A DNA stretch of 64,000 bases from an archaeon (GTDB lineage Archaea; Micrarchaeota; Micrarchaeia; CAILAH01). The stretch spans positions 3,897 to 67,896 of the forward strand of contig JAJSAH010000020.1 of the NCBI GenBank assembly GCA_024274875.1, given 5' to 3'. The notes under the pieces are model-generated. The model did not search any database and was not told the origin of the DNA. It saw only the letters and a list, made by a program, of their open reading frames with translations. The position numbers and the translations under genes were made by a program. Of the stretch, positions 26,563 to 50,227 are shown piece by piece; position 1 is the first letter of the stretch; every line of letters starts with the position of its first letter.

Positions 26563-29244
26563 TTATGGTTTGCTGTCCTCATAGTAAGAGCAAGAGACAG
26601 TTGTGACCTGAGCAACGGAAATGCTGTCCATATTCACTGCATCCAACGTTGATGATATTCCGCTGTCAGCATCAAGCAAGCTTATGGATTTAGATAGCAT
26701 CGAATTAAGCGCAAGATTTCCAAACGCATCTGCCTCCACCACGCAGTCATTTCTCGAGGATATGCAGTATCCATAAATCTCTTCAGATAATGTATCGCAC
26801 TCCTGCGCAACTTGGTCGTTCATTCCTTCATAAGCGCTTGAATATGCATCGAGAAGATATTCTGTGAACATATCTATGCACGCATCTTGTGTTTGCTGTT
26901 TCAAACTTTCGCATGACGATATGATTGACGCTTCGCTTGAGCATTCATCATAATTCTGCGCGCATATTAAGTTTGCGCATAATGAAATTACTTCGTTGGA
27001 GAACCAATCGCACCTGGATGCATACACTCCTTCCGGATGCATATCACCTTCCCAAAGACCTCTAAAAACATCTTTGCACGCATATTTATCCGCATCGTCC
27101 AGCAATTTGCTGCACAGCGAATCCGCAGTTGATGCGCATGAATAATAGTTGCCATAATAATTGCCCTCGCAGGCGCTATGCATGCATTCCATAGATAAGT
27201 TTAACTGCGCATGCCTGATTCCCTCATATAAAAATGATGTAATAACTGGATTCACCTTTGTCGAGCAATCTGGCTCCCTGCCAAGCAGAAAAATCTTTCG
27301 GATAGGGTTAGTTGCGCCATACGGCGCAGCAATCATGTATCTCCATTCCAAATATGAACATCCCGAATAATACTTCTCCTGGCCTTTTATGTAAGGAGAT
27401 CCTCTCATTACTAATACGCCTGTGCTTGCGACAGCAGGTTTTAATTCATCTGGCACTGCAATATCAGTAAGGTAATCTGCAAGTTCTTTGAATGCAATAT
27501 TAATCCTTTGCGAATATCCAAACCCTAGAAGATATATGTTAAATGTATCGCTCACATTTCCATACAACTGCGTTCCAAGCAAGTATTTTTGCTCTGCAGT
27601 CAGCAGTTTCGAATTAAAGCATAGCGATTCAGTAGTTATATCAACAACCTTGCAGGTTCCATCTTCGCACACATCCCTCATACACTGCCTATCAAAAGCA
27701 TCAACTTTCCCGTCTCCATTAAAATCAAACCTTCGGTCATACAATGAAGTGCACTGCGCATAACTCTCTGAAGAGCCAATATTTTCACCGCAATACGCAT
27801 CGAATATCTGCAAATCTGCAGTGTTTAGCAGCTCATCGCCATTCAAATCATACATTGCGCCATCATAATTGCACTCATAATAATTATCTACGCATATTTC
27901 AGGAGATTCTGTTTCAAAAACCCATGATGGAAGATCGGGATTATCCATCCAATCGTTAAATTGGTCTTCAGTGAATGTAGTCCATTCATTTTCGCCCTGC
28001 TCATCAGTTGATGTGCAGGCGATTGAGCCCGTGCTTAAAGGCAATACTCCAAATCCTCTGGCAATCAAGTTAGATAAATCAATGCATAAGAACTCAATGT
28101 CGCCTCTCTCAAACACTTCGCCCTCTTCACTGGCGCATGCGCCTGTTGATGCATCCCTGCATTCATACGGGCATGCGGGATCATAAACAAACCCTGGCGG
28201 GCAATCGCCGGCGCTCATGCAAGAGTATGTTTCAGAATCCGGCAAGGTCTTTGCGCACACTGAACCTGCGCACTCAACGCATGTCCCTGAAGCATCGCAC
28301 ACAGAGCACTGCTGGCCAACCAGTGATTCAGCGCATAGCATATTTTCGCATGATGCGCAATCCCCGCTGTTGACATCGCAACACCCAGAATCGCATCCTG
28401 CGCACGAATAATAACCTTCAGGGCACGCACCGATATCTGCGCATGTGTATGTTCCTAAAACGTTTGCGCACACTGAATCGCTGCACTCAACGCAGGTTCC
28501 GGAAGCATCGCACACAGAACACTGCTGGCCAATCTGTTCTGGGGAGCATTGCGCACCGCTGCACGATGCGCATTCTCCAGTTGCTGCTGCGCAGCATCCA
28601 GTATCGCAGTTATCGCATTGAACATAACCTGCGGGGCATGCGCCTTGCTGCTTGCACACATTCCTGTTGAGCAACGAATCATACGCGCAATAACTGTTAT
28701 CAGTGCAATCCGCGCAATTGCCTGATGAATCGCATATCTTGCATCTTTCTCCGGGTTCATCGCAAGGTTTATCGCTGCACCCTTCCAACAGTTCGCATCT
28801 GCCCTGAGCATTGCATGCATAATCCGAACAACAGGACTGCACATCCTGCGGATCGCACAGCAACCCTGCCTCGCAAGGCGCGCACTCTCCATCTGAACAC
28901 ACATATCCTGCGCAGCACGAGTCCTGCTCGCCGCACGATGCCGGATTTACACACGCTTGCTGAACCGCAAGACATTCCTGAGGGTTATCAACACTGCAAC
29001 ACTCGCCTTTCGGATTCATCACATATCCCTGCCCGCAAACGGAATAATCGCAGTAATCGATCTGATTGCCTAATGCATCAAGCACGCAGCACCCGCACGG
29101 ACTATTGCACTCAAATGCTTCATCAGGGCATTCCACTCCTCCATGTTGCGAGAACAACCATATTATAAGCAATCCAAGCACGACAAGCACTACTAATGCA
29201 ACGATTATTCTGTAATCTGCCTCGCCTCTATTTAACATTCCCAT
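26563..29244 (-). CDS. TM-anchored cysteine-rich surface protein with dockerin-like repeat pair (893 aa)
   Basis: N-term TM IVALVVLVVLGLLIIWLF; about 100 Cys in CxxC/CC modules in first 370 aa incl. a duplicated ~71-aa module; DLNGDELLNTADL...DFNGDGKVDAFD; last gene of operon. Confidence 0.7.
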   Translation of the reverse strand: MGMLNRGEADYRIIVALVVLVVLGLLIIWLFSQHGGVECPDEAFECNSPCGCCVLDALGNQIDYCDYSVCGQGYVMNPKGECCSVDNPQECLAVQQACVNPASCGEQDSCCAGYVCSDGECAPCEAGLLCDPQDVQSCCSDYACNAQGRCELLEGCSDKPCDEPGERCKICDSSGNCADCTDNSYCAYDSLLNRNVCKQQGACPAGYVQCDNCDTGCCAAATGECASCSGAQCSPEQIGQQCSVCDASGTCVECSDSVCANVLGTYTCADIGACPEGYYSCAGCDSGCCDVNSGDCASCENMLCAESLVGQQCSVCDASGTCVECAGSVCAKTLPDSETYSCMSAGDCPPGFVYDPACPYECRDASTGACASEEGEVFERGDIEFLCIDLSNLIARGFGVLPLSTGSIACTSTDEQGENEWTTFTEDQFNDWMDNPDLPSWVFETESPEICVDNYYECNYDGAMYDLNGDELLNTADLQIFDAYCGENIGSSESYAQCTSLYDRRFDFNGDGKVDAFDRQCMRDVCEDGTCKVVDITTESLCFNSKLLTAEQKYLLGTQLYGNVSDTFNIYLLGFGYSQRINIAFKELADYLTDIAVPDELKPAVASTGVLVMRGSPYIKGQEKYYSGCSYLEWRYMIAAPYGATNPIRKIFLLGREPDCSTKVNPVITSFLYEGIRHAQLNLSMECMHSACEGNYYGNYYSCASTADSLCSKLLDDADKYACKDVFRGLWEGDMHPEGVYASRCDWFSNEVISLCANLICAQNYDECSSEASIISSCESLKQQTQDACIDMFTEYLLDAYSSAYEGMNDQVAQECDTLSEEIYGYCISSRNDCVVEADAFGNLALNSMLSKSISLLDADSGISSTLDAVNMDSISVAQVTTVSCSYYEDSKP

Positions 29245-29251
29245 TTAACAT

Positions 29252-30862
29252 TCACCTCTGAACCACAACTGGGTCTGCAAAACATTGTTGCCCTTCCGGG
29301 CATGTTGCCGCTATGTTATCGCAATAATCTTCAGGAAGCACTTTCATAGAGTATGTAGGGTATTCATACGGAGACACTTGAGATGAGCTGTAATATGAAT
29401 TGCCACCGCAATCAAACGCATAATTAAACACTCCATCGCCCTGCTCATATGAAACTGTGCAACACGAACCCTGTTGCGCATCCTGATACCCTGATGCGCA
29501 TACATCAGAGGTTGTTGAAACAACACCGTCAGGGATGGCATTGCGCGGCAGTATGTACATGCAACATGCGTCAGGGTTATCGCTGCATTCGAATGCTCCA
29601 CTTGGACATGCCGCCTCAACAGATGGAGCGCATATGATCATGCCTCCTATTTGCTCGCACTCAGGCAATATAACTGCGCAACCGCGCCCTTCGCATAAGA
29701 ATGTTCCTTCTGGGCAAGCCACTATATTTTGCGCGCCCTGCTCGCAACAGCTGCAACCCTCTACATTTTCACATGGGTGACCGCTTGCACAGACCGAACA
29801 TTCGCCGGTCAAAGCATCGCAGCATCCTGAAGCGCAATCCTCCGCACTGCAAGCAACCTGTCCTTCACCGCAATTCCCAGAACTTTGACAAGTGAACATA
29901 GACGCTGCATCATTCCACGCGCACACAGTATCATCTGCGCAATCAATGCAATCATTTCCTGAGCAAACTATGCATGCTTCGCCAGGGTTGGAACATGGAA
30001 AACCTTCGCATGATTCCGCATACGCGCACGAACCCTGCGAACATACGCCGTCATCGCAGCAATCCTCGCTGAATGAACACGACCTGTCGCAAGATTCGCA
30101 GGCATTTGCATTCATATTGCATTCAAACCCGTTGCAGCATGGCTTGTCTTCATCGCAATACGCGCCCTGCTCGCAACCGCTGCACGATCCGTCTATGCAT
30201 GCATCGCCATCGCAACAATCCACATCAGATGAGCAGGAACGATAACAGCTTTCGCAGGCTCCAGCAACGCAGTTCCATCCGTTGCAACACTCATCATCTT
30301 CCGCGCAGGTTCTCTCGCATGAGATGCAAAACTCATTGCTGCACTCATAACCGCCGCAACAATCCGAATCAGATGCGCACGCAACATTATTGCAAGATTC
30401 GCATGTTCCCTCAGCCGTGCACATGAAACCTGAGCAACATGAGTTTGGGTCCTGCGGATCGCATACAAGCCCTGCTTCGCATGGAGCGCATCTTCCATTA
30501 CTGCATGAATAACCTTCGCAGCAATCCAAACTGCTTTCGCATGAGAGAGGATTAACGCATACTTTTTGATTAGTTATGCAATTCGCTGGGTTCTGAGCAT
30601 TGCAACACTGCCCTGTGCTTGGATTAAGTGAAAAACCTTCTGGGCACGACCCTGTCTCGCAGTACTCTACCAAATTGCCAAACCCATCTTCCACGCAGCA
30701 TCCGCATGCGCTTAGTGATGCATCGCACTGCACAGCTCCTTCTGGACAATTCCCGCCCAAATTCTGAAACAAAAGCATGAACAACAGCAAAAGCATGAAC
30801 CCAATAAGTAATATTGCAAGAAGTTCCATGCCTGTGTCATTATTTCTCCAAAACGGCATCAT
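29252..30862 (-). CDS. TM-anchored cysteine-rich protein, paralog of the N-terminal half of the 893-aa protein (536 aa)
   Basis: N-term TM LLAILLIGFMLLLLFMLLF; shares GRCAPCEAGLVCDPQD block (vs GECAPCEAGLLCDPQD); >90 Cys. Confidence 0.7.
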   Translation of the reverse strand: MMPFWRNNDTGMELLAILLIGFMLLLLFMLLFQNLGGNCPEGAVQCDASLSACGCCVEDGFGNLVEYCETGSCPEGFSLNPSTGQCCNAQNPANCITNQKVCVNPLSCESSLDCCEGYSCSNGRCAPCEAGLVCDPQDPNSCCSGFMCTAEGTCESCNNVACASDSDCCGGYECSNEFCISCERTCAEDDECCNGWNCVAGACESCYRSCSSDVDCCDGDACIDGSCSGCEQGAYCDEDKPCCNGFECNMNANACESCDRSCSFSEDCCDDGVCSQGSCAYAESCEGFPCSNPGEACIVCSGNDCIDCADDTVCAWNDAASMFTCQSSGNCGEGQVACSAEDCASGCCDALTGECSVCASGHPCENVEGCSCCEQGAQNIVACPEGTFLCEGRGCAVILPECEQIGGMIICAPSVEAACPSGAFECSDNPDACCMYILPRNAIPDGVVSTTSDVCASGYQDAQQGSCCTVSYEQGDGVFNYAFDCGGNSYYSSSQVSPYEYPTYSMKVLPEDYCDNIAATCPEGQQCFADPVVVQR

Positions 30863-30872
30863 TCCACCTATT

Positions 30873-33800
30873 CTACTCGCATTTATATTTCTTATACAAC
30901 TCCATCAAACGCGATTGGTCGCACATGTTGCCCTGCTGACCTTTAGGAATATCACTTTCAGAGAATATCATCAACGCCTGGCCTTCTCCCATATAATAGT
31001 AATTGCCGCATAAGTCAAACCAATGGCGCGCATACGGATCCTTCCTAACTGCGTTCTCAAGTATAACATCTGGATTGTTAACATCTTCAAATGAATTTAA
31101 CAGGTCTGCAACATCACTGCCTTCTCCGAAACTTGGCAGAGATATTCCTGATGAAGACAGCAGGTCTGAGTAAGATGATATTGTGTTTTCAAACTGCCCA
31201 TAACTTGATGCAAGATCCCCCTCCGTTTCGAAAGATGTGCTTGCAGACGATCCAAACATCGCTCCAGCATACTGCGAAAATGTGGGCATTCCGGGATACA
31301 GTTGATCCGTATGCACTCCATACGTGAATGGATCTTCCCCGCTTGTTGATGAATCATAATACAATCCGTAATCTTCGCCAGCTATCCCTGTTGACAATGG
31401 TTTGCACGAAGTATCAACCAAACAATACTGCCCCATGCCTATTATGCCTGAGCCGATCATTATCACAAAATCCTGGCCGTATAGGTCTTTCAGCTGCTTA
31501 ATCATTTCAGTATTAGTCCAACACGATTCATCCTCGTTTGCATTTCTATTTATGCCAAACCCTATTATTATTGATGGCATTCCATGATTAACAAGAGCAT
31601 ACCGCGATACATTATACAATCCTTCCAAATATGAAGAAATGGTGCACTCGCCTCTGCGCCCTGCGCCAGGGTCATCAATCACGACAATATATCCAACCAT
31701 ATCTGCCCTTTGCAGACCTTCACCCATTTTTTCTTTCAGCTTTTCATCAATCGCATCAATAGCATTCTTCATATTCTCTATATCAGCATCGCTCAACCTA
31801 AGTTCATTTGATGACATATGTATGTAAAACGGAATTGTCGAAATGCACCTCTGCTTGTAAACAGTGTTCTCATAAGGGCACATATACTTATATTGCAAAC
31901 CGTAACTTTCGCAGAAATCCTTATCTAAATCAACGCAGATGCCAGTATCCTCATCGCAGCAGCATCCATCAATTGAAAAATCGCGGTAGTCATAAGTATG
32001 CTCGATGTTTTCAGTTTCGGATTGTTCAGTTGCGCCGCCGCAAACTTCATCATCAACAGATTTAACGCTTCTGCACACACCCTCAATCTCTGCAATCTGG
32101 TCAGCAAGCCCTGAATAGCCTTCATCGCCTACGCTCGCAAGCTGGCTTACATCAATAAGCTCAGTTGTGATAAAGGAAGGTGTTGCAGGAGCGCGCGGGT
32201 TTAGCAGCTGCGTCCTGTAAACTGGATTATCCGCGCCCATTTTAGGCTCTGCGATTGATTCAGCAATCTCAGCCAGTATTGATAATTGGCTCGGGCTGCC
32301 AATCTCATCAACTGTGGCATATAGTTGCCTCTGCGTCAACGAATCTATAATTGAATGGGTGCTAACACGCTGCGCATCTCTGCATACGCGATCTCCAGGG
32401 CTCAAAGATTGCTCATCTTCAAAACCAGTTAAATAGTCTTTGAATATCACCGTTCGATCTTCATCATCTCTGTTAGTTATGCATAAGCGCGAATCTTCGC
32501 TGTTAGGAATGCTTACTTTTCGCGGCTGGAATGAGCTTATGTCTAACTCAATCTGAACCTCAGGTTTATACACATTAACTGTAAAGCTTTTTCCAGAGTA
32601 AGGGTTGTAAAATAGATACCTGATTTTTTTGCCATCGTTCGGTATCTGCAGCTCATTCGCAGTATTGAATGTTTGATGCTCGCCAGGACTTAATTCAAGC
32701 CGTCTTATCTTATCGCCCATCTCCACAGATTTGGCAGACAAGTATGCATCCATATCGATCGGGCTTACTGAATACTGCACGGAATCAATTATGCAATCCT
32801 CATAATCTCCGCTGCATATTTTGGTCATCTTATTCTGTATAACTCCATATATATCATCTTCCGAACACGGATCGAGCGCGCCGTAATACCATACAACTGC
32901 ATCAGGCCCTGTGTTATTTATAACTATTTCATCGCCGAGAGCAACATCAAGCTCATCAACTGAAACTGCGGTAGACGGATCACCTGGATCGATCTGCTGC
33001 ATTACGGTTAAGTTGTATAGATACACATCTGCATACAATGCGTTCTCCATAATGTAATCCATGCTAAGCGAAGTATTTCTGTACATTCTCCCATCGTGCG
33101 CAAAAGATGGCACTTTGTACAGCAAATCGCCCAACTCAGTATCTGCAAGATTGCGAGCGAACGGCGATATATGAGAAAATATAATTTCCTTCCCATCTTG
33201 CACATCTAAAAGATTTGGGTAGTAAGGCGACTCATGCACTGAATACCATCCCTGCATATCTGGAGAGTATGAAACCGTGCCAAGCGGCGAGATAACCTCT
33301 TGAATTCCATCAAATGTGTCCTCTCCATAACAAACCGCTTTCAGCCCTGACTCGCTGTTAATTTGGAATACGTCTGAGATCGCATAACCCTGCCCAAACT
33401 CGCTCACTCCTTCCTGAACCTCGCCTGCCAAAAAGTACGTGCGCCCAGGATCAATGCTGTTCACCATGAACAGAATGCCGTTTGTAAGAGAAGATTCATC
33501 TATTCCTCCTCTTATTCTGTTTCCTGGATCTAAATCATTGTTTGGATTGCTGGATGTATCGCAGGGCGTTTCTGGGAATTCGTAATAATCATTATTTATG
33601 AACCTATACACTCCATTATACTGGCCCACTGGATTTGATAGGTCGAAAAAGCGCACTCTTCCGCTCTCATCTTCTGAATATGCAAATGAATCTATTCCGC
33701 CAATCACATTCGCCAAATACCAATTGTCATCTCTCGTGCCCTTCAACTGGGAATCTGCGCCCCAATCCTGCTTTGTAGCCCTGCACCAATACCAAAGCTC

Positions 33801-36800
33801 TGTGCCTTCCTCATCAACTGTGCTATCTTCTGCAGGATAACCGCACAGCGCCCCGTATTTGTTGTATATTATCAACGGCTTAGAAGCAGCAACTATTAAA
33901 TCTGACCACAAAGCATTCTTAACATCATTGCTTAACCTACCTGGGATAGGCTTTGCTTCAAAATCCCGCTTATCACCGCAAGTCCTGCCGCCATAATTTT
34001 GGTTATAATCTCCTACAAAATCGCCCGTAAGCAAAAACGGCTGGGTCGTAATCAGCCTGCCGCACGGCCTCTGTATAGAATAATCATCAACAAATTTGAG
34101 GGCCGCATCATTGATTATTTCGCCATTCGCCAATATGAGCGTTTCTGGAACAATTTCAACAAAGCGTGAATCTGCGATATCGATTTTTCCATAATCCTGC
34201 CTATGCGACAGATCATACGGGTTTGGCACACTGCCAGGCATAATCGAACCAAATCCATACTGCAATCTGCCCACAACCTGCGGAAGCAGCACATAATCAT
34301 TTCTCTTGCTGCGCAAATACTCATATTTGCCAACGCCCCCAGCAAACGCGTCTCCTCCAAGCTCAGGCACTCCAATAATATGAGGAAATGAGTATGCAAA
34401 TTCTTCAGGATACACTGTGTTGTTGAACGGAACTATGAACCCAATCTTTTCTCCGATAGTATTTACATAACCGCACCCTGATTTCACCCAACCTGGCCTT
34501 TCCTCGCCGGGATTCTCGTTGTGGTACCACTTATCATACCACATGCTTGGGAATACATTAACACCCTTAACAACAAACAACGATCCTTTCCAATTCTTCA
34601 GCATGCTTTCACTGAATGCGCCTCCCGAATCGCTGTTGCTTAATATCCACGAACGGCCTGGCGCATACCTCCTGAGCAGTACTGAATAAGAATCTGAATA
34701 AACATCTCCTCCCAAGTCAACATATGTAAATCTCATTATCTTGTCGGATGTCTCTAACGCAATAGGAGTGAATATTCTGTACTCCCTTACTGCAAAGGTA
34801 TCCTTCATCCCTGTGATATACCCAGGAGTTAACTCAATTGTTCGCTGTTCAAGCTTAGATGTATATGTGTTTGGGATTATCCTATGCGTGCTTTTCAGCA
34901 CAAGAGACCCTACTCCATTTTCATCTGTATCTTGACTCCTGCCCAAAGATAATTTAATATCATCATATCCCATGTTCGGCAGCAGGGTTATATCAGTAAC
35001 TTTGGCTGCGCCGCCAACATACGGATCATGATTTGATAACGCATCTATATCGCTTGCCGATAAAGAATATGCAGTCATTTTCTGCGGGCTCCAAAACTGC
35101 TGAAGATCTGCTGTTGCGGGAGAGCCGTCATCAACTAACATGCAGTAAGAGTTTGCGCTGACATCGCTCGGCCTAAGCATTACTGCTCTGGGATCCTCTG
35201 CAAGATTGTGAAGCCTAACGAGATAATTGTCCGTTCCATGACTGTCCATTCTGTACGCATCATAAGAAACTTTCAATTCGTGAGTAACCGCGGCTTTCTT
35301 TAAATTGAACTGCTTTGACACTGTTCCGCTGCTCACGCTGAAAGTTATATCTTCATCAGGCATTTCAAAACTCCATCCATTCAACGAAGGCGAATATGCG
35401 CCAGCTTCAGGAGGAGCAGATACATCATCTCTTGAAATTCCATCTGCAAGCGTCACATTGACCTTGCTGCCTTCTGCGATTGAATAATTCTCAGGAATCG
35501 AAGGGTCAACCATATTAACATCAGTATCGCCAATTCTGGAATACACAAATACAGGCAATGCGTTATCATACGCGAGCATAGAACGCGCCTGCATAATCTC
35601 TGTCTTGCTCGGAACGCCGGACAACATTTGAACGCCAAACCCTAATGTGCTGCTTGAACCTACCCTTCCCAACGCAGATGCAGAACCTCCTTCAACATCG
35701 CCGCGTATCACTAACATATTTTTGGGAATATTGAACTGCTGCGCATCTTCATCATAATAACTTAGAGCAATGCCTCCTATCCTGCGCACAACAAAAACAT
35801 TAGCGCCAGGACGCAAAACTATTGAATCTCCACTGATCATGCGCCGCGCATTAATGCCAACCTCGAGATTTACAAAACCTGATTTCATATCATCCTCCTT
35901 GTACTGCACATTAAGCGCGCGCATCTTGTAATCTCCAAGCTGATATTCATACACTACCTGCTCGTTCGCAGGCGCTGTGATTGAGCGTTCTCCGTTTGAT
36001 GAATAAACTTTAATAGATATATCATAATCCGCATTGTTGCGTATCACGACATCCGGCACAGACAAATCTAACCTTGCCATGCTGAACCCTGTCCCATTTG
36101 AGATAGATAAATCCTCATACACTTTGTAATTAATATCATCAAGATTAACTACTTTTACATCAGGGAATTGCGAGAACAGATCTAAATTGAGCGGACCTTC
36201 AAACGCAGATGCGTAATCTGGAAACGCAACTTCAGCATATCCAGGCACGGAATTGCCGTTTACTATATATAATATGTTCTTGTCCCCTACCGCAACAAGA
36301 GCGTACAACCCAGTATCAGCATTCCTGAACATGTGCAATCCATCTGAATTCATATCATAGCATCTTTTCTGGCCTTTGGAAATCAATTCGCCTGACTGCG
36401 CAGCGCCGTTATCCCATTCCAAAGAAGACGAATCTGAAACTAATGTTGGCCCAATTATCCTAACATCAGAATCTACAGCATTTATGCATACCTTTCCGCC
36501 TTGAGCGACCCTTCCATCAGTAGGAACAAATGCAGTTGAATACGCATCTATGTTAAGAACATCGCCCCCAGTAGTTGAGATGTAAAACTTTGCGCCGGAC
36601 AATGTATCAACCAATTCATAGTTTGCTTCATTCTCAGACAAACTATAATCGCAGTAATCCTGCAACGGAGGCAACATAAATGAACCTGAATGCCCTTCAT
36701 CGCTCGAATACTCAACCTCTCTCTCTTCTCCAACAGGGTTTGAGATGCATATGAGGTCATCCTTTTTTGCGATAGATGAATACGGGGAATAATCATAATC

Positions 36801-39296
36801 ATTCACCCGAATGTTTGATTGGACATCCGATGGGAACACAACAACATACGCTTTGTTTCCAGCAGGATACTCTTTGTCTGAAATCCTGTAAATGCCGGGC
36901 TCTTTTATATCAAAACAGCATTCAAGACCAAAATATGATGATTTTGCCTGCACAGGCAGGTATGAATTCGGTTCATACAACGCCTTCTTTTCAAGCACAA
37001 GCGTTTTCTTTCCGCTGGGAGCTTCATTGCGCACGCACAACTTTGAGCCAAAAGGAATGGAGATTGCAACTGGAGCAAACAACGGCTCGTTGCTTCCCTG
37101 CACAGTTATAGTATCACCTTCAGTGTAAACTACATAACTGAAATCTTCGCTGCCTATGGTTGCAGTATACTCACCCGGGCCAGGCGCATACAGCAAGCGG
37201 ACTTTGTCATGCTCTACAACACGCATCACTATGCGCAATGACGAATCGCCTGCATCAAAAGAATCAGTCATTTCATCCTCTTGAGACCCGCTCCCTTCTA
37301 AATATACTGAACCATCCTCATTAACGCCAAAAGTTATTCCTTCGCCTAAATCCACTGAACTGCCCCTGCTCATCTCAGATATATCAAGATCGGCGCCTCC
37401 ATAAGATGCGCCAAAATAACTGCCTTCATTAATGGAGAAACTTGGACCCTGCAACTCTCCAGTGAACACTCCTGAAGCGTCATAATCTGCAGATGCAAAC
37501 ACTGCATCCAATTTAACAACGCCTTTGTAATAGAACTCAGGATTGCCTGCATTGTCAAGCCGCATCTCATTAAAATCAGTTATGGTTAGGTCTTCAGGAG
37601 TTATCACGCTAACTATGGCAAATGCATGCTCATTATCATCTACACCTATCTTTGTGGTTCCCAGAGTGAAATTTGTGCCCGAACCTGTTGGGAAACAGGT
37701 GCCTTTTCCTGCTTCAAGATATTTCAGAAGCGTCCTTGCCCCGCCATTTCCAATTAAATGCAATGTGTGATCCTTGCCTCCAACGTTGTCAAAGCATACC
37801 TCACCACCTTCAAACACAGTTGTGGTGCTTGGAGAGAATGGCAATAATCCTGCGCTTATTTCAATGTCCGCAGGTTTTGATGGCTTGCATAGTTTTTTAG
37901 CAAGCTCGTAATCATTAAAAGAGGGTCCCTGGCCAAGCATGAATATAGGTATTTCTTGGTTCTCGCTTGTCAGAACTTCCTTATACAATCCAGATGAGAA
38001 ATTATGCACTCCATAAACATACCCGCCCTGCGAAGAAGTATCAGATGTCTTCTTGCAGTATGTGTAATAATACTCATCATTTGAATTCGGCCGAGTGCAT
38101 TTGTATGTAGAATACACTGCAATATCGCATCTGCACTTGCAGATGAAATATCTCTGCTCGTCTTCTCCAGAGAATTCATCTTTGCCGCAAGTGTACACAT
38201 TCTTATAATACGGACCCAATGCATCCATCACCTCAATGCGCACATACCTGCCTTTTCCTATCCCTGCCCTGTCTATTTCAACGCATGGGTTTAAGCCATT
38301 GCATTTATTGAACTCTAAATCGGAATATGAGAACCCGCGCGCAGTAACGCCTGCATCAGATTTGCTGAAATCCTCTATGTCATCATTCGCATGCTCGCGC
38401 GAACACCTGTTGCACTCTTCACCTTTATCAGGGTTTTCCTTCGCTTCGCTGCATATATCTTCGCATCCTTTCACATATGTATCTGAACTTTCTTCAGATG
38501 AAGAATCAAGATACTCCTGAGCCAATTCTTCAAGCAACCTGTAATCATCTCTCAAGTTATCTATTCTCTTTGAATCAGGAGGATAAGCTGATGTGTCAAG
38601 AATAGGGTTGTATTCGAACCCTTTGGCATTGTATGGATACTGAATCGGCATGTTGGCTTGGCAGCCCATAGGGATTTTATAGGATAGTATGCCCCCCTCA
38701 TCACAGGTATAGCAACCTTCCTGCAAACTCGTGCAATTCAACGCATATTCAGAATTCCTAGCTGAGTCAGATACTGCGTTGCATCCCATATAATATGTTT
38801 CATCGCTTTGCTCATCCAACTTGAACTTCCCTATTGATCCCAAACCATCATAAAAAGATCCAGGATGGAGCGATTCGGAAGGGTATGCAATTCCAAACCC
38901 ATACCCGCGATCTCTCTTACCGCAGACCATTCCAGTGATGTAATACCCTACTTTTTTCTCAGTATCGAATGAACAATCATATTTAAGGCACAGCGTATCT
39001 GGAATGCTTAATACCTCGCATCTGTCACCTCTGTCTTCATAATACACAGTCCCCCGCGGGTCATCATTTGCCCCTTTATACGCAGGAGAACACTCCCACT
39101 TAACGTTCTTTTTCTCAACTTCTTTAACAACTGCCATGCAGCTTGCTTGTTTGCATTCGATGGGGGATTCAGGCACAGTCGGTTCGGCAGATTCCACAGT
39201 AATTTTCGTTGGGAGCTCTTGCCGAACATCATATTTAAGGCACCCTGCAAAGAACAATGCAACCAACAATAACAGCGCAGCGGTTAGTTTATACAC
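30873..39296 (-). CDS. Giant surface protein, 2807 aa, lipoprotein-type signal peptide
   Basis: MYKLTAALLLLVALFFAGC (lipobox-like), uninterrupted 8.4-kb ORF, many N-x-S/T sequons, Cys pairs, acidic Ser/Asp-rich tail; no TM beyond signal. Confidence 0.8.
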   Translation of the reverse strand: MYKLTAALLLLVALFFAGCLKYDVRQELPTKITVESAEPTVPESPIECKQASCMAVVKEVEKKNVKWECSPAYKGANDDPRGTVYYEDRGDRCEVLSIPDTLCLKYDCSFDTEKKVGYYITGMVCGKRDRGYGFGIAYPSESLHPGSFYDGLGSIGKFKLDEQSDETYYMGCNAVSDSARNSEYALNCTSLQEGCYTCDEGGILSYKIPMGCQANMPIQYPYNAKGFEYNPILDTSAYPPDSKRIDNLRDDYRLLEELAQEYLDSSSEESSDTYVKGCEDICSEAKENPDKGEECNRCSREHANDDIEDFSKSDAGVTARGFSYSDLEFNKCNGLNPCVEIDRAGIGKGRYVRIEVMDALGPYYKNVYTCGKDEFSGEDEQRYFICKCRCDIAVYSTYKCTRPNSNDEYYYTYCKKTSDTSSQGGYVYGVHNFSSGLYKEVLTSENQEIPIFMLGQGPSFNDYELAKKLCKPSKPADIEISAGLLPFSPSTTTVFEGGEVCFDNVGGKDHTLHLIGNGGARTLLKYLEAGKGTCFPTGSGTNFTLGTTKIGVDDNEHAFAIVSVITPEDLTITDFNEMRLDNAGNPEFYYKGVVKLDAVFASADYDASGVFTGELQGPSFSINEGSYFGASYGGADLDISEMSRGSSVDLGEGITFGVNEDGSVYLEGSGSQEDEMTDSFDAGDSSLRIVMRVVEHDKVRLLYAPGPGEYTATIGSEDFSYVVYTEGDTITVQGSNEPLFAPVAISIPFGSKLCVRNEAPSGKKTLVLEKKALYEPNSYLPVQAKSSYFGLECCFDIKEPGIYRISDKEYPAGNKAYVVVFPSDVQSNIRVNDYDYSPYSSIAKKDDLICISNPVGEEREVEYSSDEGHSGSFMLPPLQDYCDYSLSENEANYELVDTLSGAKFYISTTGGDVLNIDAYSTAFVPTDGRVAQGGKVCINAVDSDVRIIGPTLVSDSSSLEWDNGAAQSGELISKGQKRCYDMNSDGLHMFRNADTGLYALVAVGDKNILYIVNGNSVPGYAEVAFPDYASAFEGPLNLDLFSQFPDVKVVNLDDINYKVYEDLSISNGTGFSMARLDLSVPDVVIRNNADYDISIKVYSSNGERSITAPANEQVVYEYQLGDYKMRALNVQYKEDDMKSGFVNLEVGINARRMISGDSIVLRPGANVFVVRRIGGIALSYYDEDAQQFNIPKNMLVIRGDVEGGSASALGRVGSSSTLGFGVQMLSGVPSKTEIMQARSMLAYDNALPVFVYSRIGDTDVNMVDPSIPENYSIAEGSKVNVTLADGISRDDVSAPPEAGAYSPSLNGWSFEMPDEDITFSVSSGTVSKQFNLKKAAVTHELKVSYDAYRMDSHGTDNYLVRLHNLAEDPRAVMLRPSDVSANSYCMLVDDGSPATADLQQFWSPQKMTAYSLSASDIDALSNHDPYVGGAAKVTDITLLPNMGYDDIKLSLGRSQDTDENGVGSLVLKSTHRIIPNTYTSKLEQRTIELTPGYITGMKDTFAVREYRIFTPIALETSDKIMRFTYVDLGGDVYSDSYSVLLRRYAPGRSWILSNSDSGGAFSESMLKNWKGSLFVVKGVNVFPSMWYDKWYHNENPGEERPGWVKSGCGYVNTIGEKIGFIVPFNNTVYPEEFAYSFPHIIGVPELGGDAFAGGVGKYEYLRSKRNDYVLLPQVVGRLQYGFGSIMPGSVPNPYDLSHRQDYGKIDIADSRFVEIVPETLILANGEIINDAALKFVDDYSIQRPCGRLITTQPFLLTGDFVGDYNQNYGGRTCGDKRDFEAKPIPGRLSNDVKNALWSDLIVAASKPLIIYNKYGALCGYPAEDSTVDEEGTELWYWCRATKQDWGADSQLKGTRDDNWYLANVIGGIDSFAYSEDESGRVRFFDLSNPVGQYNGVYRFINNDYYEFPETPCDTSSNPNNDLDPGNRIRGGIDESSLTNGILFMVNSIDPGRTYFLAGEVQEGVSEFGQGYAISDVFQINSESGLKAVCYGEDTFDGIQEVISPLGTVSYSPDMQGWYSVHESPYYPNLLDVQDGKEIIFSHISPFARNLADTELGDLLYKVPSFAHDGRMYRNTSLSMDYIMENALYADVYLYNLTVMQQIDPGDPSTAVSVDELDVALGDEIVINNTGPDAVVWYYGALDPCSEDDIYGVIQNKMTKICSGDYEDCIIDSVQYSVSPIDMDAYLSAKSVEMGDKIRRLELSPGEHQTFNTANELQIPNDGKKIRYLFYNPYSGKSFTVNVYKPEVQIELDISSFQPRKVSIPNSEDSRLCITNRDDEDRTVIFKDYLTGFEDEQSLSPGDRVCRDAQRVSTHSIIDSLTQRQLYATVDEIGSPSQLSILAEIAESIAEPKMGADNPVYRTQLLNPRAPATPSFITTELIDVSQLASVGDEGYSGLADQIAEIEGVCRSVKSVDDEVCGGATEQSETENIEHTYDYRDFSIDGCCCDEDTGICVDLDKDFCESYGLQYKYMCPYENTVYKQRCISTIPFYIHMSSNELRLSDADIENMKNAIDAIDEKLKEKMGEGLQRADMVGYIVVIDDPGAGRRGECTISSYLEGLYNVSRYALVNHGMPSIIIGFGINRNANEDESCWTNTEMIKQLKDLYGQDFVIMIGSGIIGMGQYCLVDTSCKPLSTGIAGEDYGLYYDSSTSGEDPFTYGVHTDQLYPGMPTFSQYAGAMFGSSASTSFETEGDLASSYGQFENTISSYSDLLSSSGISLPSFGEGSDVADLLNSFEDVNNPDVILENAVRKDPYARHWFDLCGNYYYMGEGQALMIFSESDIPKGQQGNMCDQSRLMELYKKYKCE

Positions 39297-40070
39297 TCAT
39301 GACCCCCCTACTTCCAAAAGTTCTACATCAAACTTTTTATTCTTATTATCGTCATACACAATGTGCCTAAGCATTATTGGGATGCTCTCATCCACCCACA
39401 GCTCTTCCTCCCCATTCGCGTATATGAACACGCTTGCGTTGAATTTTCTTCCGCCTGCATTGTATGTTTCATACCTATCGAAGCTTTCCGCATCCAAATG
39501 CTCCTTGCACACAAACCATACTGGATACCCTGAACAGCTCATAACATTATTGTTGGACTGCTGAAAACTGCCAAAACCCTGCAAATCTGTTTGGTATTGC
39601 ACGCATTTCCCATCGCTCGCATAAGTATAGTATATGGCTATCTCTGTATGCCTTCCGCCGTAATTAGAAGTAACTGTTGATTTTATTCTGTAATACTGCC
39701 CAGTGAAAGAATCAAACTGATATGTTGAATGGACCGTGATATCCTCGAAGCTTACTGCATACTTCGTGCGCAATAACATTAATTCACTGGGATTGCCGAG
39801 CGGCGTGCAGTTGGAGAACTCCGATTGCTGATCAAACCATGTTCCCGAGCTCTGCTCAACAGCAGATTCTGGTTCTCTGTCGCCAATATTCTCACCAAAA
39901 TCCGCACCTGAAGATTCCTGGTTAGAACTCTGTTCAATTTCAGCAGCATTCGCAAACGGCATAACTTCATCATTATGCGAAGGTGAGTTTAAGTATGACA
40001 ATATAAGCACAAATGCGAACATCGCGCCTATCAGCAAAACTATCATCGTGTTGTCTTTGCTCAAATCCAC
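39297..40070 (-). CDS. Membrane-anchored hypothetical protein (257 aa)
   Basis: N-term TM MIVLLIGAMFAFVLILSYL then acidic Ser-rich linker and globular domain; stop abuts giant gene start. Confidence 0.5.
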   Translation of the reverse strand: MDLSKDNTMIVLLIGAMFAFVLILSYLNSPSHNDEVMPFANAAEIEQSSNQESSGADFGENIGDREPESAVEQSSGTWFDQQSEFSNCTPLGNPSELMLLRTKYAVSFEDITVHSTYQFDSFTGQYYRIKSTVTSNYGGRHTEIAIYYTYASDGKCVQYQTDLQGFGSFQQSNNNVMSCSGYPVWFVCKEHLDAESFDRYETYNAGGRKFNASVFIYANGEEELWVDESIPIMLRHIVYDDNKNKKFDVELLEVGGS

Positions 40071-45657: not shown

Positions 45658-47040
45658 CTATATGAATGTAAGCATGTTTACCACTGATTCATCACCGCCG
45701 AACGCTTCAACAAGCGCTTTCATGCCGCTCAGCACAAACACTATGTTAAAGAACGGCATGAAAAATGCATACGCAAACATATCTGCGCTCATGGCAATTT
45801 GGCTTGCGATGGCTTCTCCAATCTGAATGCCTACCAATCCAGGACCGCTCAAAATCAATGACAATACGGCCGATACGGATGTAAGCACGCTGTACACCAA
45901 GCTTATTATGGTCCATAAGACATCAAATGTCCATACAACTACGCCCAATACAGGAAATATGGATACGCATACAGCAATGCATATGTACCTCAAGAAGCCT
46001 GACGGGCATTGGTCAACAAGCCAATTGAAAAAGTCCCATAAATATACTGGTATGTTAAGCAGGCTGAAAAAATTAACTATATCTGAGGGCAGGCCTGATG
46101 CAGATGACACAGTGCTATCCATGCTTATGCCTAAATTGTTTAATCCTGCATCGCGCAAAAGAATCTCGGAAGATGTGCTCCCTGAAGAATCTATGCCTGT
46201 CAACTGGCCTGATGCGCTAAGCTGCGAATACACCGCTGCCTCAAACACAAGTATCAACTTGAAGAACAAAAACCCGCCTAAAAATATGCCTAATAAAGTG
46301 CTTCCCATCCTCCTCGTAAAAGTGAATGCGCGGAGAAATAACGCAAGGCCTATGAATATGTGAATTGTTTTCTCAAAAAATGCCAGCAGAAGCATCTGCC
46401 CGGTTATAGAGATAATTGCTGTAATAAGTATGGGCATGAACATGCTCGCAAATACCATAACTAAAGAATATGCTGTCTGCGGCGCGTAGTAGAATGAATA
46501 CGTCCAGCTCACAAAAAATGTGTTGTATGCTGCGGGAGACCAACTAATTGCGTTGAGCAATGATGCAAAAGATGTAAACTGCGAAAGGCCAACCAACTGG
46601 TCAACTGATGAATGAATCACTGAAGAAAAAACTTCTTGATATGTTTGATCAGGAGTAAATGAATTTACCAACGCATCGAATACCGGGAAAAATGCAACTA
46701 TCAGAGCAGCATACACCGTGCTCATAAACACTTCCCTAAGCTCTGCTCTGCTCCAAATCTCCAACTCCCTTGAAGAGAATATTGAAGCGCCCATAAACCC
46801 TAACGCAACGATTGCATATGAAATTATCAGCGCAATCGCAATCCCATAATCAAATAGAAAACTTTCCAAACCAGTATCCTGCGGTGGGACCTGAAACTCA
46901 GATCCTTGCACTCCCGCCTGCGGAAATGCTTCGAGCTCTGAGCCCTGGCCTTGCAACGGATGAACCTGAGAATAAGCCGCGCCTGCAATTAAAATGAAAA
47001 AAAGCACCGGCAAGAACAGGCGGTTAGCGCTTGCATCCAT
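45658..47040 (-). CDS. Polytopic membrane protein, paralog 6 of 6 (first gene of operon; signal peptide)
   Basis: IGLALFLRAFTFTRRMGSTLLGIFLGGFLF; start set at MDASANRLFLPVLFFILIAGAAYSQ (ORF-track start 47136 would overlap divergent gene). Confidence 0.55.
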   Translation of the reverse strand: MDASANRLFLPVLFFILIAGAAYSQVHPLQGQGSELEAFPQAGVQGSEFQVPPQDTGLESFLFDYGIAIALIISYAIVALGFMGASIFSSRELEIWSRAELREVFMSTVYAALIVAFFPVFDALVNSFTPDQTYQEVFSSVIHSSVDQLVGLSQFTSFASLLNAISWSPAAYNTFFVSWTYSFYYAPQTAYSLVMVFASMFMPILITAIISITGQMLLLAFFEKTIHIFIGLALFLRAFTFTRRMGSTLLGIFLGGFLFFKLILVFEAAVYSQLSASGQLTGIDSSGSTSSEILLRDAGLNNLGISMDSTVSSASGLPSDIVNFFSLLNIPVYLWDFFNWLVDQCPSGFLRYICIAVCVSIFPVLGVVVWTFDVLWTIISLVYSVLTSVSAVLSLILSGPGLVGIQIGEAIASQIAMSADMFAYAFFMPFFNIVFVLSGMKALVEAFGGDESVVNMLTFI

Positions 47041-47098
47041 AACTTGAATTCGCTGATTAAATATATAAATATGATATGAAATATAGCTTTGACATAAC
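47041..47098. promoter_or_regulatory. Divergent promoter region with shared TATA element
   Basis: ttaaatatataaatat centred about 30 bp from both the 47040(-) and 47099(+) starts. Confidence 0.4.
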
Positions 47099-50000
47099 AT
47101 GAGCATGAAAGCTTTGCACAGCAGTTTGCTAGCCATATTTGTAATTTCGTTGTTAGCGCTTAACCTAATCCATGCTAGCGCAGGATGTCTTATTCAAAAA
47201 ATCCCCACAGCGCTTGAGTTAAAAGAATCATACGATCCAGACACAAACAAGCTAATACTTTATGCTAAGTTGACATACATAGACCCAAATACTGGATTGG
47301 GCAAACCGCTCGAACAAAAAAAACTTAAATTCTACGTGAATTACACCACATCGCAAGGCAGTGAAAAAACTGATTCTTCAGTTTTATTTACTGACAGCAA
47401 AGGGAAGGCATCTGCGTTATTCGTTCTAAGCAATGCAGCAGAGCATAATTCAGCGGTTGTCTTTGAAGGCGATGATCTGTTTGGGAAAAGCATAGGCACA
47501 TTAAGCGGTGCGAAGGGCGCGCCGCAATCGTTTGAAACAAATCTTCCTGAAGGCATAAACATTACTACATGCATGCCGCTGCTTCTGCTGTTGGGATTTC
47601 TCGGTGCAGCGATGTATGCATCTGGAATGAATCCGTTTGGAGCTATTGATTTTACCGCGCCGCGCGGATTTACGATGCAGCGCAGGCTAAGGAAAGCATA
47701 CCAAGCAGGGTGGTTCTCAAGCATCGCAAGAGCTGTAGGGGGAACGCTGAGCGCAGTCGGCAGGTCAATGGTTAAAGGAAAAGGGGTTAAGGAAGAGGCG
47801 ATGAAAGAAGGAGAGAATGCAAACGAACAGAAGACCAAAGAGAAACTGCCTGTTAAGGGTAAGGGCAAGGGCAAATTGCCTACAAAAAGCAAAGGCGTGC
47901 GCATGGCCAGCAAGCAAGCGAAAAAAGCAATGGCCGCAAAAAAGCCTGTTGCAAAACCTAAAAAAATGGAAAAACCTCTGGGAGCGAAAGCAACGCTTGG
48001 AAAAGCCGCTCCAAAAGATGTTAGTTTAGAACAGCCAAAGACAGCTATCGCGCTCACCGCAACAGCAGGTTATGGGTTGATGCTCGACTTTTTAGGATGC
48101 ATTGCATCCGCCATGGGCGGCAATGTATGGGCTGCTAGTGGAATGAAGCTCAAAAAGCTCGATTTCATTAAAGATGGAAATAAGTACAAAGGTTATGTTA
48201 TACTCACGAACGCAACAACTCAAATCGTCAAAAAAGCTCTCTTTGAAGCTGCAAAAGAGCTATGGGCTAATAATTCATCTGTGCGCGAGGTAGGAAGCGC
48301 TTTGGCAAATGCAGTGCGTCAACTATCAGTGAATGCAGAGATTGGAAAAGACCTTGCAAAACGATTGGAAGAAGCAGTAGACTCGTTAAAAAACAAAGAA
48401 AAAAAGCTTAAAAAATCCATCAAATCGCTAAAAAAAGAAATAGAAAAAATCGAAGATAAGATGGATGTTGTGGGACCTGAAGAAAGAAAGTCACTCGCAA
48501 AGAAGCTTAATGAGAAAAACATTGAGCTGGACCTTGCTAAAGAACATCTCAGCGATGTTAAAGAAAGGATTACTGCTATTGAGGGAAAGATAAAAGCAAC
48601 TGAATCAATCATTGGAATGCCTACAAGGCTTGAGCAGATTGCGGAAGGCGCAAAACAGGTGAGCGAGATTGAAGAATCGCTTGCTGAAGTGCGTGAATCA
48701 GCGAAAAAAATATTTGAAGAGTTTGGCAGGGAGATGGGCGTAAGAAGGTATGACCAAATAAAAGTGAATAATCTCGAAGAATTCGCAAAACAATTAGAAA
48801 AGAAAGGCGATACTGAGAGGGCTGCACAGCTTCGAAACATGCTTGATGAATTCAAATCGAGCATGATTGATGCAGCGAACGCGCTAAGCAATGCGAGCAT
48901 GTTTGTGGGAAGTTCAAACGCAATGATACATAAAGGAAGCAAATTGTTGGGCGAATCTAGATTCCTTGCGGATGTTGATTCAAAAACTGTGCTGCAAGCA
49001 AAGTTGGGGGATATGGCAAGAAACCTGGATAATGCCATTGTTGGTTTCAACACGGTCAAAACCATGATTGATAATGGAATTCCAGTGAATTACAACATAG
49101 CTGTGAACTGCATAGATGATTTGACTGCTACGCTCGCAGCGCAGGGCATCAAATCAAAAAAGCTTGATGAACTGAGAATTAAAATGCATGAGTTAATTAA
49201 AAACCCTGAAACTGCCAGCGAAACCTTGAAAAGCATGCTCTCAATCGCGGATACGGATGTTTTACAAAATATTCGCAAGCACACCGAAAAATATGGCGTG
49301 CAGATAAAAACGCGCGGAGAGTTTGATAAGTTTATAACTAATATGAATGAGAAAGTGCAAAAAGCCGAAAAACCCGTGCAGGAAAAATTAGCTGAACCTG
49401 TTAAAAATCTTAAAGAATCCTATGATGCGCTGATTTCGTTCAGGGAACAGATGAAAGAGAATAAAGAGGTTGATTATCAGAAGCTAAACGAGCAAATCAA
49501 TAAAGCTAAAGAGTCGATTAACGCGCTTGGAATCAAACCCCCTGAAGCGCTTGACAAAATTAAGGAGAAAATTAAAGAACAGCCTGAATATGCAGATGAC
49601 AAATCTATCGGCAATATAATTGCAACAATAGATGTAGAAATTCTTCCTGAAGTAAAGAAACTGGCTGAGGAGAATAATCTTGAAGTAACCACAGAAAGCA
49701 GGTTTGATGAATATGTAAAAAATCTGAAGAAAGAATCAACGAAAGCGTGGGAGAAGAAAGACAAATATGTAAAAGAATACATGGCGGAGAAAGCAAAGAG
49801 CATGGCAAAAACTGAAAAAGAAAAAAAGATGGCTTCTAAATCTCCTGAGGCGGTGGTGCTGCGTCCAGTTGAACAGCCAATACCAAAAAACATAAAACTT
49901 GAAACCCCGCATTACGATGAAATTGTTAAGGAATTAAATAGAAGAAGTTACGAAAAGCTTGACAGATCGATAGAAGAAAGGAATAAACAGATTAACGACT

Positions 50001-50227
50001 TCTTGGAAATAGTTCCTGAAGAAAAACGGGATGCGATGGAGAAAGAACTATTTAATGAAAGACCGTTAATGCAAATGGATTTTGGAACGCTTGGCCCTCA
50101 AAAAGTTTTAGATATAGCTGAGGAAGAGGGGATAAGCAAAAGCGTGATAAAAGATGCAAAAAGAGAGATCGAGGGAATTAATCTTTTAAGAGAGGCATTG
50201 GGCCTTCAAAATGAATCTTCTGAATAA
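47099..50227 (+). CDS. Lys/Glu-rich coiled-coil membrane protein (1042 aa), divergent partner of the membrane operon
   Basis: Signal peptide ALHSSLLAIFVISLLALNLIHASAGC, TM ITTCMPLLLLLGFLGAAMYASG, AKK/PKK-rich linker, then about 700 aa heptad-like K/E-rich sequence. Confidence 0.6.
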   Translation: MSMKALHSSLLAIFVISLLALNLIHASAGCLIQKIPTALELKESYDPDTNKLILYAKLTYIDPNTGLGKPLEQKKLKFYVNYTTSQGSEKTDSSVLFTDSKGKASALFVLSNAAEHNSAVVFEGDDLFGKSIGTLSGAKGAPQSFETNLPEGINITTCMPLLLLLGFLGAAMYASGMNPFGAIDFTAPRGFTMQRRLRKAYQAGWFSSIARAVGGTLSAVGRSMVKGKGVKEEAMKEGENANEQKTKEKLPVKGKGKGKLPTKSKGVRMASKQAKKAMAAKKPVAKPKKMEKPLGAKATLGKAAPKDVSLEQPKTAIALTATAGYGLMLDFLGCIASAMGGNVWAASGMKLKKLDFIKDGNKYKGYVILTNATTQIVKKALFEAAKELWANNSSVREVGSALANAVRQLSVNAEIGKDLAKRLEEAVDSLKNKEKKLKKSIKSLKKEIEKIEDKMDVVGPEERKSLAKKLNEKNIELDLAKEHLSDVKERITAIEGKIKATESIIGMPTRLEQIAEGAKQVSEIEESLAEVRESAKKIFEEFGREMGVRRYDQIKVNNLEEFAKQLEKKGDTERAAQLRNMLDEFKSSMIDAANALSNASMFVGSSNAMIHKGSKLLGESRFLADVDSKTVLQAKLGDMARNLDNAIVGFNTVKTMIDNGIPVNYNIAVNCIDDLTATLAAQGIKSKKLDELRIKMHELIKNPETASETLKSMLSIADTDVLQNIRKHTEKYGVQIKTRGEFDKFITNMNEKVQKAEKPVQEKLAEPVKNLKESYDALISFREQMKENKEVDYQKLNEQINKAKESINALGIKPPEALDKIKEKIKEQPEYADDKSIGNIIATIDVEILPEVKKLAEENNLEVTTESRFDEYVKNLKKESTKAWEKKDKYVKEYMAEKAKSMAKTEKEKKMASKSPEAVVLRPVEQPIPKNIKLETPHYDEIVKELNRRSYEKLDRSIEERNKQINDFLEIVPEEKRDAMEKELFNERPLMQMDFGTLGPQKVLDIAEEEGISKSVIKDAKREIEGINLLREALGLQNESSE

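Follow-up and report, generated by a model that had tools for sequence, protein, structure and literature searches.

An 893-residue cysteine-rich protein, encoded on the minus strand of a 64-kb stretch of DNA from a Micrarchaeota lineage (the whole stretch, positions 1-64000, is called the window here), very probably contains a dockerin-family module at residues 466-526. Its gene belongs to a 10-gene operon on the minus strand (26563-47136), in which the genes overlap or lie no more than about 10 nucleotides (nt) apart. We propose, with a probability of about 0.55, that this is a Ca2+-dependent docking module linking the 893-residue protein to another component of a surface assembly encoded by the operon. 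The module would fold around two Ca2+ ions, and its two helices would provide a Ca2+-dependent surface for protein-protein docking. Through this surface, the protein or its C-terminal head would be held to a further member of the same assembly at the cell surface. The module would sit between the cysteine-rich stalk and the helical C-terminal head of an anchored, disulfide-rich protein, in the part that is predicted to be extracellular. We infer that the protein is extracellular, that it forms disulfides, that the module docks and what its partner is.

Identification of the dockerin module

The minus-strand translation of window positions 27667-27849 is exactly the peptide quoted in a first-pass annotation of this DNA, DLNGDELLNTADLQIFDAYCGENIGSSESYAQCTSLYDRRFDFNGDGKVDAFDRQCMRDVC, which corresponds to residues 466-526 of the 893-residue open reading frame (ORF) at 26563-29244 on the minus strand. 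The annotation had recognized a pair of dockerin-type Ca-binding repeats in this peptide, and our analysis bears this out, since the peptide matches the Dockerin_1 family and its ligand residues are conserved in homologs. A search with the Pfam dockerin profile PF00404 had been suggested as a check, and the match was found. Dockerin_1 (PF00404) was the top Pfam family; the whole protein scored 22.8 bits (E=1e-4; gathering cut-off, 22.9 bits), and the match spanned residues 465-521. For the isolated 77-residue segment, the match to this family reached 28.3 bits (E=2e-6) and extended over positions 2-51 of the 57-position profile.

The two loops, DLNGDELLNTAD and DFNGDGKVDAFD, are the sole matches to EF/dockerin loop patterns in all six frames of the window. 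Both loops have Asp or Asn at positions 1, 3, 5 and 9 and Asp at position 12, and each is followed by a helix, which in the structural model starts from loop position 10. The D-x-N-G-D-G-x-x-D spacing ascribed earlier to both segments requires amendment for the first loop, which reads D-x-N-G-D-E-x-x-N, yet residues competent as ligands occupy every position. When the protein was shuffled 200,000 times, 0.014% of the shuffled versions had a loose pair of loop motifs separated by 20-60 residues, and a fraction of 5e-6 had two strict DxNGDx6D motifs.

A canonical EF-hand pair was not found with the EF-hand models of Pfam: EF-hand_1 scored 10-16.9 bits (cut-off, 25.4) and EF-hand_7 scored 17.7 bits (cut-off, 30), and these matches covered single loops only. 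Position 12 is Asp in dockerin loops and Glu in canonical EF-hands. In the present family position 12 is an invariant Asp, and the model of the module has no full entering helix before loop 1. The thrombospondin type 3 repeat (TSP_3) was absent from the Pfam matches at E≤10, both for the protein and for the isolated segment.

Conservation of the module

Full-length orthologs of the 893-residue protein, with 32-60% identity, are present in metagenome-assembled genomes (MAGs) of Micrarchaeia. A word-indexed search found three homologs, and an exhaustive profile search found about 12 full-length or N-terminal relatives. The family alignment comprised 11 members, including the window protein, with identities of 27-61%. 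Conservation of the Ca-binding residues in homologs, on which the repeat assignment had been said to depend, was observed: D466, D477, D511 and D518 are invariant over the 11 members. N468, D470, D507 and N509 are at least 90% conserved, and F508 is invariant. Thus, conservation at positions 1, 3, 5 and 12 of each loop is complete or no lower than 90%, despite an overall identity that falls to 27-35%. Conservation in this alignment also extends to the hydrophobic core and, in the linker, to the motif YD(R/K)R(F/Y)DFN.

Dockerin_1 was matched at E≤0.01 by 8 of the 11 family members (17.5-29.6 bits), and four of the 11 reached the whole-protein cut-off. The orthologs above the cut-off scored 27.8, 29.5, 29.5 and 29.6 bits, and three further members below it scored 21.1, 20.2 and 17.5 bits. 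GenBank already lists one homolog (P0004) as a dockerin type I domain-containing protein.

Reciprocal searches with the family likewise led to dockerins. When the family profile was compared with 1.84 billion proteins, about 70 proteins from outside the family matched just profile positions ~510-570. Three of these were scanned and proved to be strong dockerins, with 66-244 bits on Dockerin_1; two of the three carried 5-6 copies. The profile of residues 420-893 was also compared with sequences in the PDB, and the seven best matches were dockerins; the only other match was troponin C, with E>3. The best match, 2y3n_B (E=0.0019), extended across both repeats. No contig in the genome collection searched contained an exact copy of a 50-mer taken from the gene, which indicates that the window's genome is not among the GTDB representatives. 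A family-based genome scan returned five species representatives of Micrarchaeota/Micrarchaeia, together with two bacterial matches that covered the dockerin alone.

Predicted structure of the module

An AlphaFold2 model of residues 441-545 was built from an 11-sequence alignment. The core of the model had a predicted local distance difference test (pLDDT) score of 64-84, and its elements followed one another in the order loop, helix (475-485), short linker helix (494-500), loop, helix (516-530). The loop-helix topology of dockerins was seen in the model; AlphaFold modeling of residues 460-530 had been proposed in the first-pass annotation. The top Foldseek matches in the PDB were dockerins: 2y3n_B (root-mean-square deviation (rmsd) 2.8 A, target template modeling (TM) score 0.62, probability 0.91), followed by 2ozn_B, with E-values that were not significant. 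Membership in the dockerin family rests on the sequence, the conservation of ligand residues and the helix topology, and the module presumably binds Ca2+.

The module also has unusual features. Invariant cysteines flank it on either side, with C451 and C458 preceding the module and C521, located in helix 3, C526 and C531 following. Tyr465 stands directly before loop 1, where Gly is usual. In addition, the linker insertion found in P0001 (the window protein) and its closest relative, P0002, carries a cysteine pair that may form a C485-C498 disulfide. Known dockerins are stabilized by a non-covalent “clasp” between their N- and C-termini (PMC3821032). By analogy, a disulfide version of the dockerin clasp is plausible here.

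Function of the module

Cohesin, the partner of dockerin in known systems, was searched for at the sequence level in 36 window proteins (64 kb of the genome) and in the syntenic loci of other assemblies. Pfam was scanned at E≤10 with the dockerin protein, the 2807-residue giant protein of the operon, the 257-, 536- and 1042-residue proteins and two of the six membrane paralogs; the remaining window proteins were scanned at E≤0.001-0.01. NCBIfam scans of all 10 operon proteins gave noise only and no cohesin, and comparisons of the giant, the 257- and 536-residue proteins and the six membrane paralogs with the PDB, by sequence and by profile, returned no cohesin; those other than the giant gave no relevant PDB match of any kind. 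No multi-cohesin scaffoldin was found among the window proteins scanned.

Several observations weigh against a docking function. None of the 36 window proteins scanned, including the 2807-residue giant, matched Cohesin (PF00963), and no cohesin is on record for any called gene in the syntenic loci of other Micrarchaeota assemblies (L001-L006). The module is internal (residues 466-526 of 893) and not C-terminal, and Pfam and NCBIfam revealed no recognizable catalytic domain attached to it. The whole-protein Dockerin_1 score fell 0.1 bit short of the gathering cut-off, and three distant family members had no Dockerin_1 match at E≤0.01. The best Foldseek E-value was 0.46, which is not significant for this very small domain, and a longer model from a 4-sequence alignment gave a pLDDT of just 54-62 over the dockerin region. 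Finally, the helix positions expected to contact a partner differ among orthologs. This variability is compatible with co-evolution with a partner and fits equally well with the absence of an interface constraint.

The first-pass annotation had also proposed that the protein docks onto a cohesin-bearing partner, for example the giant. This proposal is unsupported because no cohesin signal was found in the scanned window proteins or the syntenic clusters. Judged by the sequences scanned, any partner is not a recognizable cohesin; it may be a divergent cohesin fold or be encoded elsewhere, including in a host.

The main alternative is that the module is a purely structural calcium site with no binding partner, in which a dockerin-like EF-hand pair, locked by flanking disulfides, stiffens or orients the junction between stalk and head. 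We regard this as possible, if rather unlikely. The missing cohesin among the proteins examined and the internal position of the module within its frame of invariant cysteines are consistent with a structural site, as is the pattern of conservation, in which the presumed interface positions are poorly conserved while ligand residues, hydrophobic core and linker motif are maintained. Moreover, many of the non-cellulosomal dockerins come from genomes that have no scaffoldins (PMC9012536). In contrast, the family profile is closest to true cohesin-binding dockerins, and the protein is co-encoded with several large surface proteins that would need assembly, which argues against this alternative. 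To our knowledge, every dockerin that has been tested functionally is a docking module, and this also counts against a purely structural site.

The docking function can be extended to a hitherto undescribed, Micrarchaeota-specific envelope machine in which the dockerin would act as a Ca2+-dependent connector. Here, the six membrane proteins would form a platform that displays the 2807-residue lipoprotein and the two cysteine-rich stalk proteins; the dockerin would bind a beta-sandwich module of the giant, either a non-cohesin or a cohesin-like module that has diverged beyond recognition; and the assembly would mediate attachment to, or exchange with, a host cell. Taken together as one proposal, these elements make a doubtful and speculative picture.

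Alternatively, the dockerin could dock onto a protein of the host-cell surface, with no self-encoded partner, and the 893-residue protein would then be an adhesin for an episymbiotic lifestyle. Micrarchaeota are host-dependent DPANN archaea (PMC8975820), and an adhesin role has been proposed for the non-cellulosomal dockerins in giant ORFs of other ultra-small symbionts (PMC10066038); the lack of a self-encoded cohesin in the cluster is in line with this. Nevertheless, the module lies in mid-protein behind a 360-residue C-terminal domain, which is the more obvious distal tip, and is present in a single copy. We consider host docking improbable.

That these are chance motifs of an acidic protein or part of a generic EF-hand Ca2+ sensor, and not a dockerin, could be suspected from the very acidic composition, the marginal whole-protein score and the Foldseek E-value, but the rarity of both the loose and the strict pair in shuffles, the persistence of the motifs in 11 divergent homologs, the return of dockerins in reciprocal searches, the Asp at position 12 and the EF-hand scores well under their thresholds speak against it, and the Dockerin_1 scans across the family, the conservation, the PDB profile search and the shuffle test effectively refute it.

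Architecture of the dockerin protein and its operon

The features of the dockerin gene and of the neighboring operon genes are listed in Table 1.

Table 1. Positions of the dockerin gene, its predicted features and the other operon genes in the window
Feature	Positions	Strand	Remarks
Gene for the 893-residue Cys-rich, dockerin-bearing, predicted surface protein (P0001)	26563..29244	-	Last gene of the operon
C-terminal region, residues 532-893	26566..27651	-	Small beta unit ~610-656; Cys-stapled helical bundle ~666-859
Dockerin module with invariant cysteine frame, residues 451-531	27652..27894	-	C451 and C458 upstream; C521, C526 and C531 downstream; 11-member alignment
Putative Ca-binding loop 2, DFNGDGKVDAFD, residues 507-518	27691..27726	-	Followed by model helix 3, residues 516-530
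Linker insertion of ~12 residues with extra Cys pair C485 and C498	27751..27792	-	From the alignment; in P0001 and P0002 only
Putative Ca-binding loop 1, DLNGDELLNTAD, residues 466-477	27814..27849	-	Followed by model helix 1, residues 475-485
Cys-rich stalk, residues 37-372; 62 Cys, 18.5%	28129..29136	-	~71-residue tandem repeats; paralogous to the 536-residue neighbor
Single N-terminal hydrophobic segment, residues 13-31	29152..29208	-	Kyte-Doolittle score 3.43; R6 and R12 before the segment
536-residue paralog	29252..30862	-	Shares the anchor and Cys-rich stalk (87 Cys); lacks the dockerin and the C-terminal domain
2807-residue giant	30873..39296	-	N-terminal signal; lipobox-like FAGC motif; candidate partner
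257-residue protein	39297..40070	-	One N-terminal transmembrane segment; acidic low-complexity linker; ~170-residue C-terminal domain
Six consecutive paralogous polytopic membrane proteins, 310-492 residues	40072..47136	-	5-10 hydrophobic segments each

The dockerin protein is strongly acidic and contains 89 cysteines (10% of its residues). Its hydrophobic segment at residues 13-31 is predicted from the sequence to be a membrane anchor or an uncleaved signal, with a topology that is likewise predicted. It is the only such segment found in the protein, and it would place the remainder outside the cell.

The stalk is related to the 536-residue neighbor (BLASTP E=1e-37, 32% identity). Within the stalk, at 28250-28638 on the minus strand, there is a 213-nt (71-residue) tandem repeat of 1.8 copies (75% matches). 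It coincides with a local peak in guanine-cytosine (GC) content (0.51 versus ~0.43 elsewhere), and the number of repeats varies among orthologs. The tandem repeat and the local rise in GC suggest that the length of the stalk evolves through gain and loss of repeats.

In the C-terminal region, an AlphaFold model based on a 4-sequence alignment gave pLDDT values of 83-95 over most of residues 666-849. The helical bundle (26668-27249 on the minus strand, residues ~666-859) has many conserved cysteines. A fold search with the C-terminal half found no significant structural match in the PDB or BFVD, and the PDB sequence and profile search of residues 420-893 found no relative outside the dockerin. 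Matches of this half to the BabA adhesin and to 4-helix sensor domains had probabilities of just 0.06-0.69 and a large rmsd, and no fold was assigned from them. The bundle may have a new fold or be a distal “head” domain.

A plus-strand ORF of 91 residues (27488-27763) overlaps the site. We took it to be spurious, given that the family conserves the minus-strand frame.

Equivalents of the 536-residue paralog, 554-598 residues in length, occupy the same position in L001, L002, L004, L005 and L006. In the giant, G18 and C19 are invariant in three orthologs, and the protein has 64 cysteines. Several of its modules have a G..(V/L)C(I/F)xN motif and weak cupredoxin/plastocyanin signals. The Pfam scan at E≤10 gave a weak Cupredoxin_1 match of 17.7 bits, and against the PDB there was only a sub-threshold plastocyanin match (E=0.8). 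Orthologs of the giant, with 2876-2948 residues and ~40% identity, were found only in Micrarchaeia.

The 257-residue protein is a candidate for a small docking partner. Its C-terminal domain has no match in Pfam or the PDB, and equivalents of 235-257 residues are positioned alike in L005 and L006. The six membrane paralogs share an LPxGxxxRSFxxTRxxG-like motif and similar C-terminal tails (..LGGxxDIxxxxRVV). No match to this family was found in Pfam, NCBIfam or the PDB. Its members were found only in MAGs of Micrarchaeota or Micrarchaeia, where they are always named “hypothetical protein”.

Upstream of the operon lies a divergent gene for a 1042-residue protein (47099-50227, plus strand). This protein carries a signal at its N-terminus and a further hydrophobic segment at residues ~153-171; it also has a tract rich in Lys and an extended coiled-coil region. 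A 1161-residue gene occupies the same divergent position in L006, so that the 1042-residue gene may belong to the same system. The 492-residue ORF among the membrane paralogs (45658-47136, minus strand) shares 38 nt with the 5' end of the divergent gene. Its public counterpart from the same contig (P0108) has 460 residues, from which the true start of this ORF is probably Met33 (MDASANRL...), at about position 47040.

The complete 10-gene order, together with the divergent coiled-coil gene, recurs in L006, and the downstream part recurs in L001-L005, invariably next to genes for KaiC, an Na/H exchanger and SRP54; the syntenic housekeeping genes kept in several genomes are those for KaiC, the Na/H exchanger, SRP54, a glycosyltransferase and TFIIE. 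GC content is even across the cluster, and all relatives of the cluster come from MAGs of Micrarchaeota or Micrarchaeia, which together indicate a native, lineage-specific operon. Horizontal transfer or a viral origin of the cluster was rejected on the basis of the uniform GC content and the conserved synteny with housekeeping genes.

No tRNA gene (ARAGORN) and no Rfam family at gathering score was found in the 64-kb window. The window still holds housekeeping genes, among them those for SecY, SRP54, an FtsY-like protein, PCNA, AglB and HerA.

Significance

Dockerins are among the few modules of surface proteins whose biochemistry can be predicted: docking is Ca2+-dependent, reversible with ethylenediaminetetraacetic acid (EDTA) and of high affinity. 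The conserved dockerin therefore provides an experimental handle on an operon that otherwise has no annotation at all, and the isolated module could be used as bait for its partner. The subject bears on how ultra-small, host-dependent archaea build their cell surface and possibly on how they contact their hosts. Taken alone, however, a dockerin of the non-cellulosomal kind in a surface protein of an archaeon is no surprise. One homolog carries the annotation in GenBank and the domain is well known in archaea, so the module adds one more ordinary member to an established domain family; the operon around it is entirely uncharacterized. In a full-text search of the literature, dockerin and Micrarchaeota did not occur together in any paper.

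Comparison with known systems

The closest annotated relative is P0004 (1208 residues; [quoted passage not shown]), which belongs to the same family and shares 36% identity with the window protein over their common parts. Like the window protein, it has an N-terminal anchor, a cysteine-rich stalk, an internal dockerin and a C-terminal domain, and its locus shows the same synteny, with the giant, the cysteine-rich paralog and the dockerin gene followed by KaiC. In contrast, P0004 has additional cysteine-rich repeats and insertions, and its dockerin linker is shorter and lacks the cysteine pair. The window protein, for its part, falls just below the Pfam cut-off and carries no name in the protein collection.

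Cellulosomal type I dockerins (PF00404), represented by Cel48 of Pseudobacteroides cellulosolvens (2Y3N_B) and Cel5A of Clostridium cellulolyticum (2VN5), share with the present module the two 12-residue Ca loops with Asp or Asn at positions 1, 3, 5 and 9, Asp at position 12 and a helix after each. The predicted topology of loop-helix, linker and loop-helix is also shared, and these dockerins gave the best PDB matches in sequence and fold. Unlike them, the window module is internal, with no glycoside hydrolase or other recognizable enzyme attached, and no cohesin or scaffoldin was detected with it. It further differs in its invariant cysteine frame, in C521 within helix 3, in Tyr in place of the usual Gly before loop 1 and in a linker that is 12 residues longer in the window ortholog.

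Non-cellulosomal dockerins and cohesins have been documented in archaea, and binding has been shown for some of them (PMC9012536). As that paper summarizes from Peer et al. 2009, Archaeoglobus fulgidus and anaerobic methanotrophic (ANME) archaea encode cohesin-bearing proteins in the same genomes, and some of the pairs bind. Our module differs from these in the lack of a visible cohesin, in its Micrarchaeota lineage and in its operon context. It resembles them in being archaeal, non-cellulolytic and, by prediction, extracellular, and in both cases the domain is thought to serve in linking surface proteins.

A giant ORF of Omnitrophota, which are bacteria, contains nine dockerins within the ORF itself (PMC10066038). 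In the window, a single dockerin is found in an 893-residue protein encoded beside a giant that is free of dockerins. Both cases have in common a non-cellulosomal dockerin in a surface protein of a probably host-dependent organism with a reduced genome, for which a role in adhesion has been proposed.

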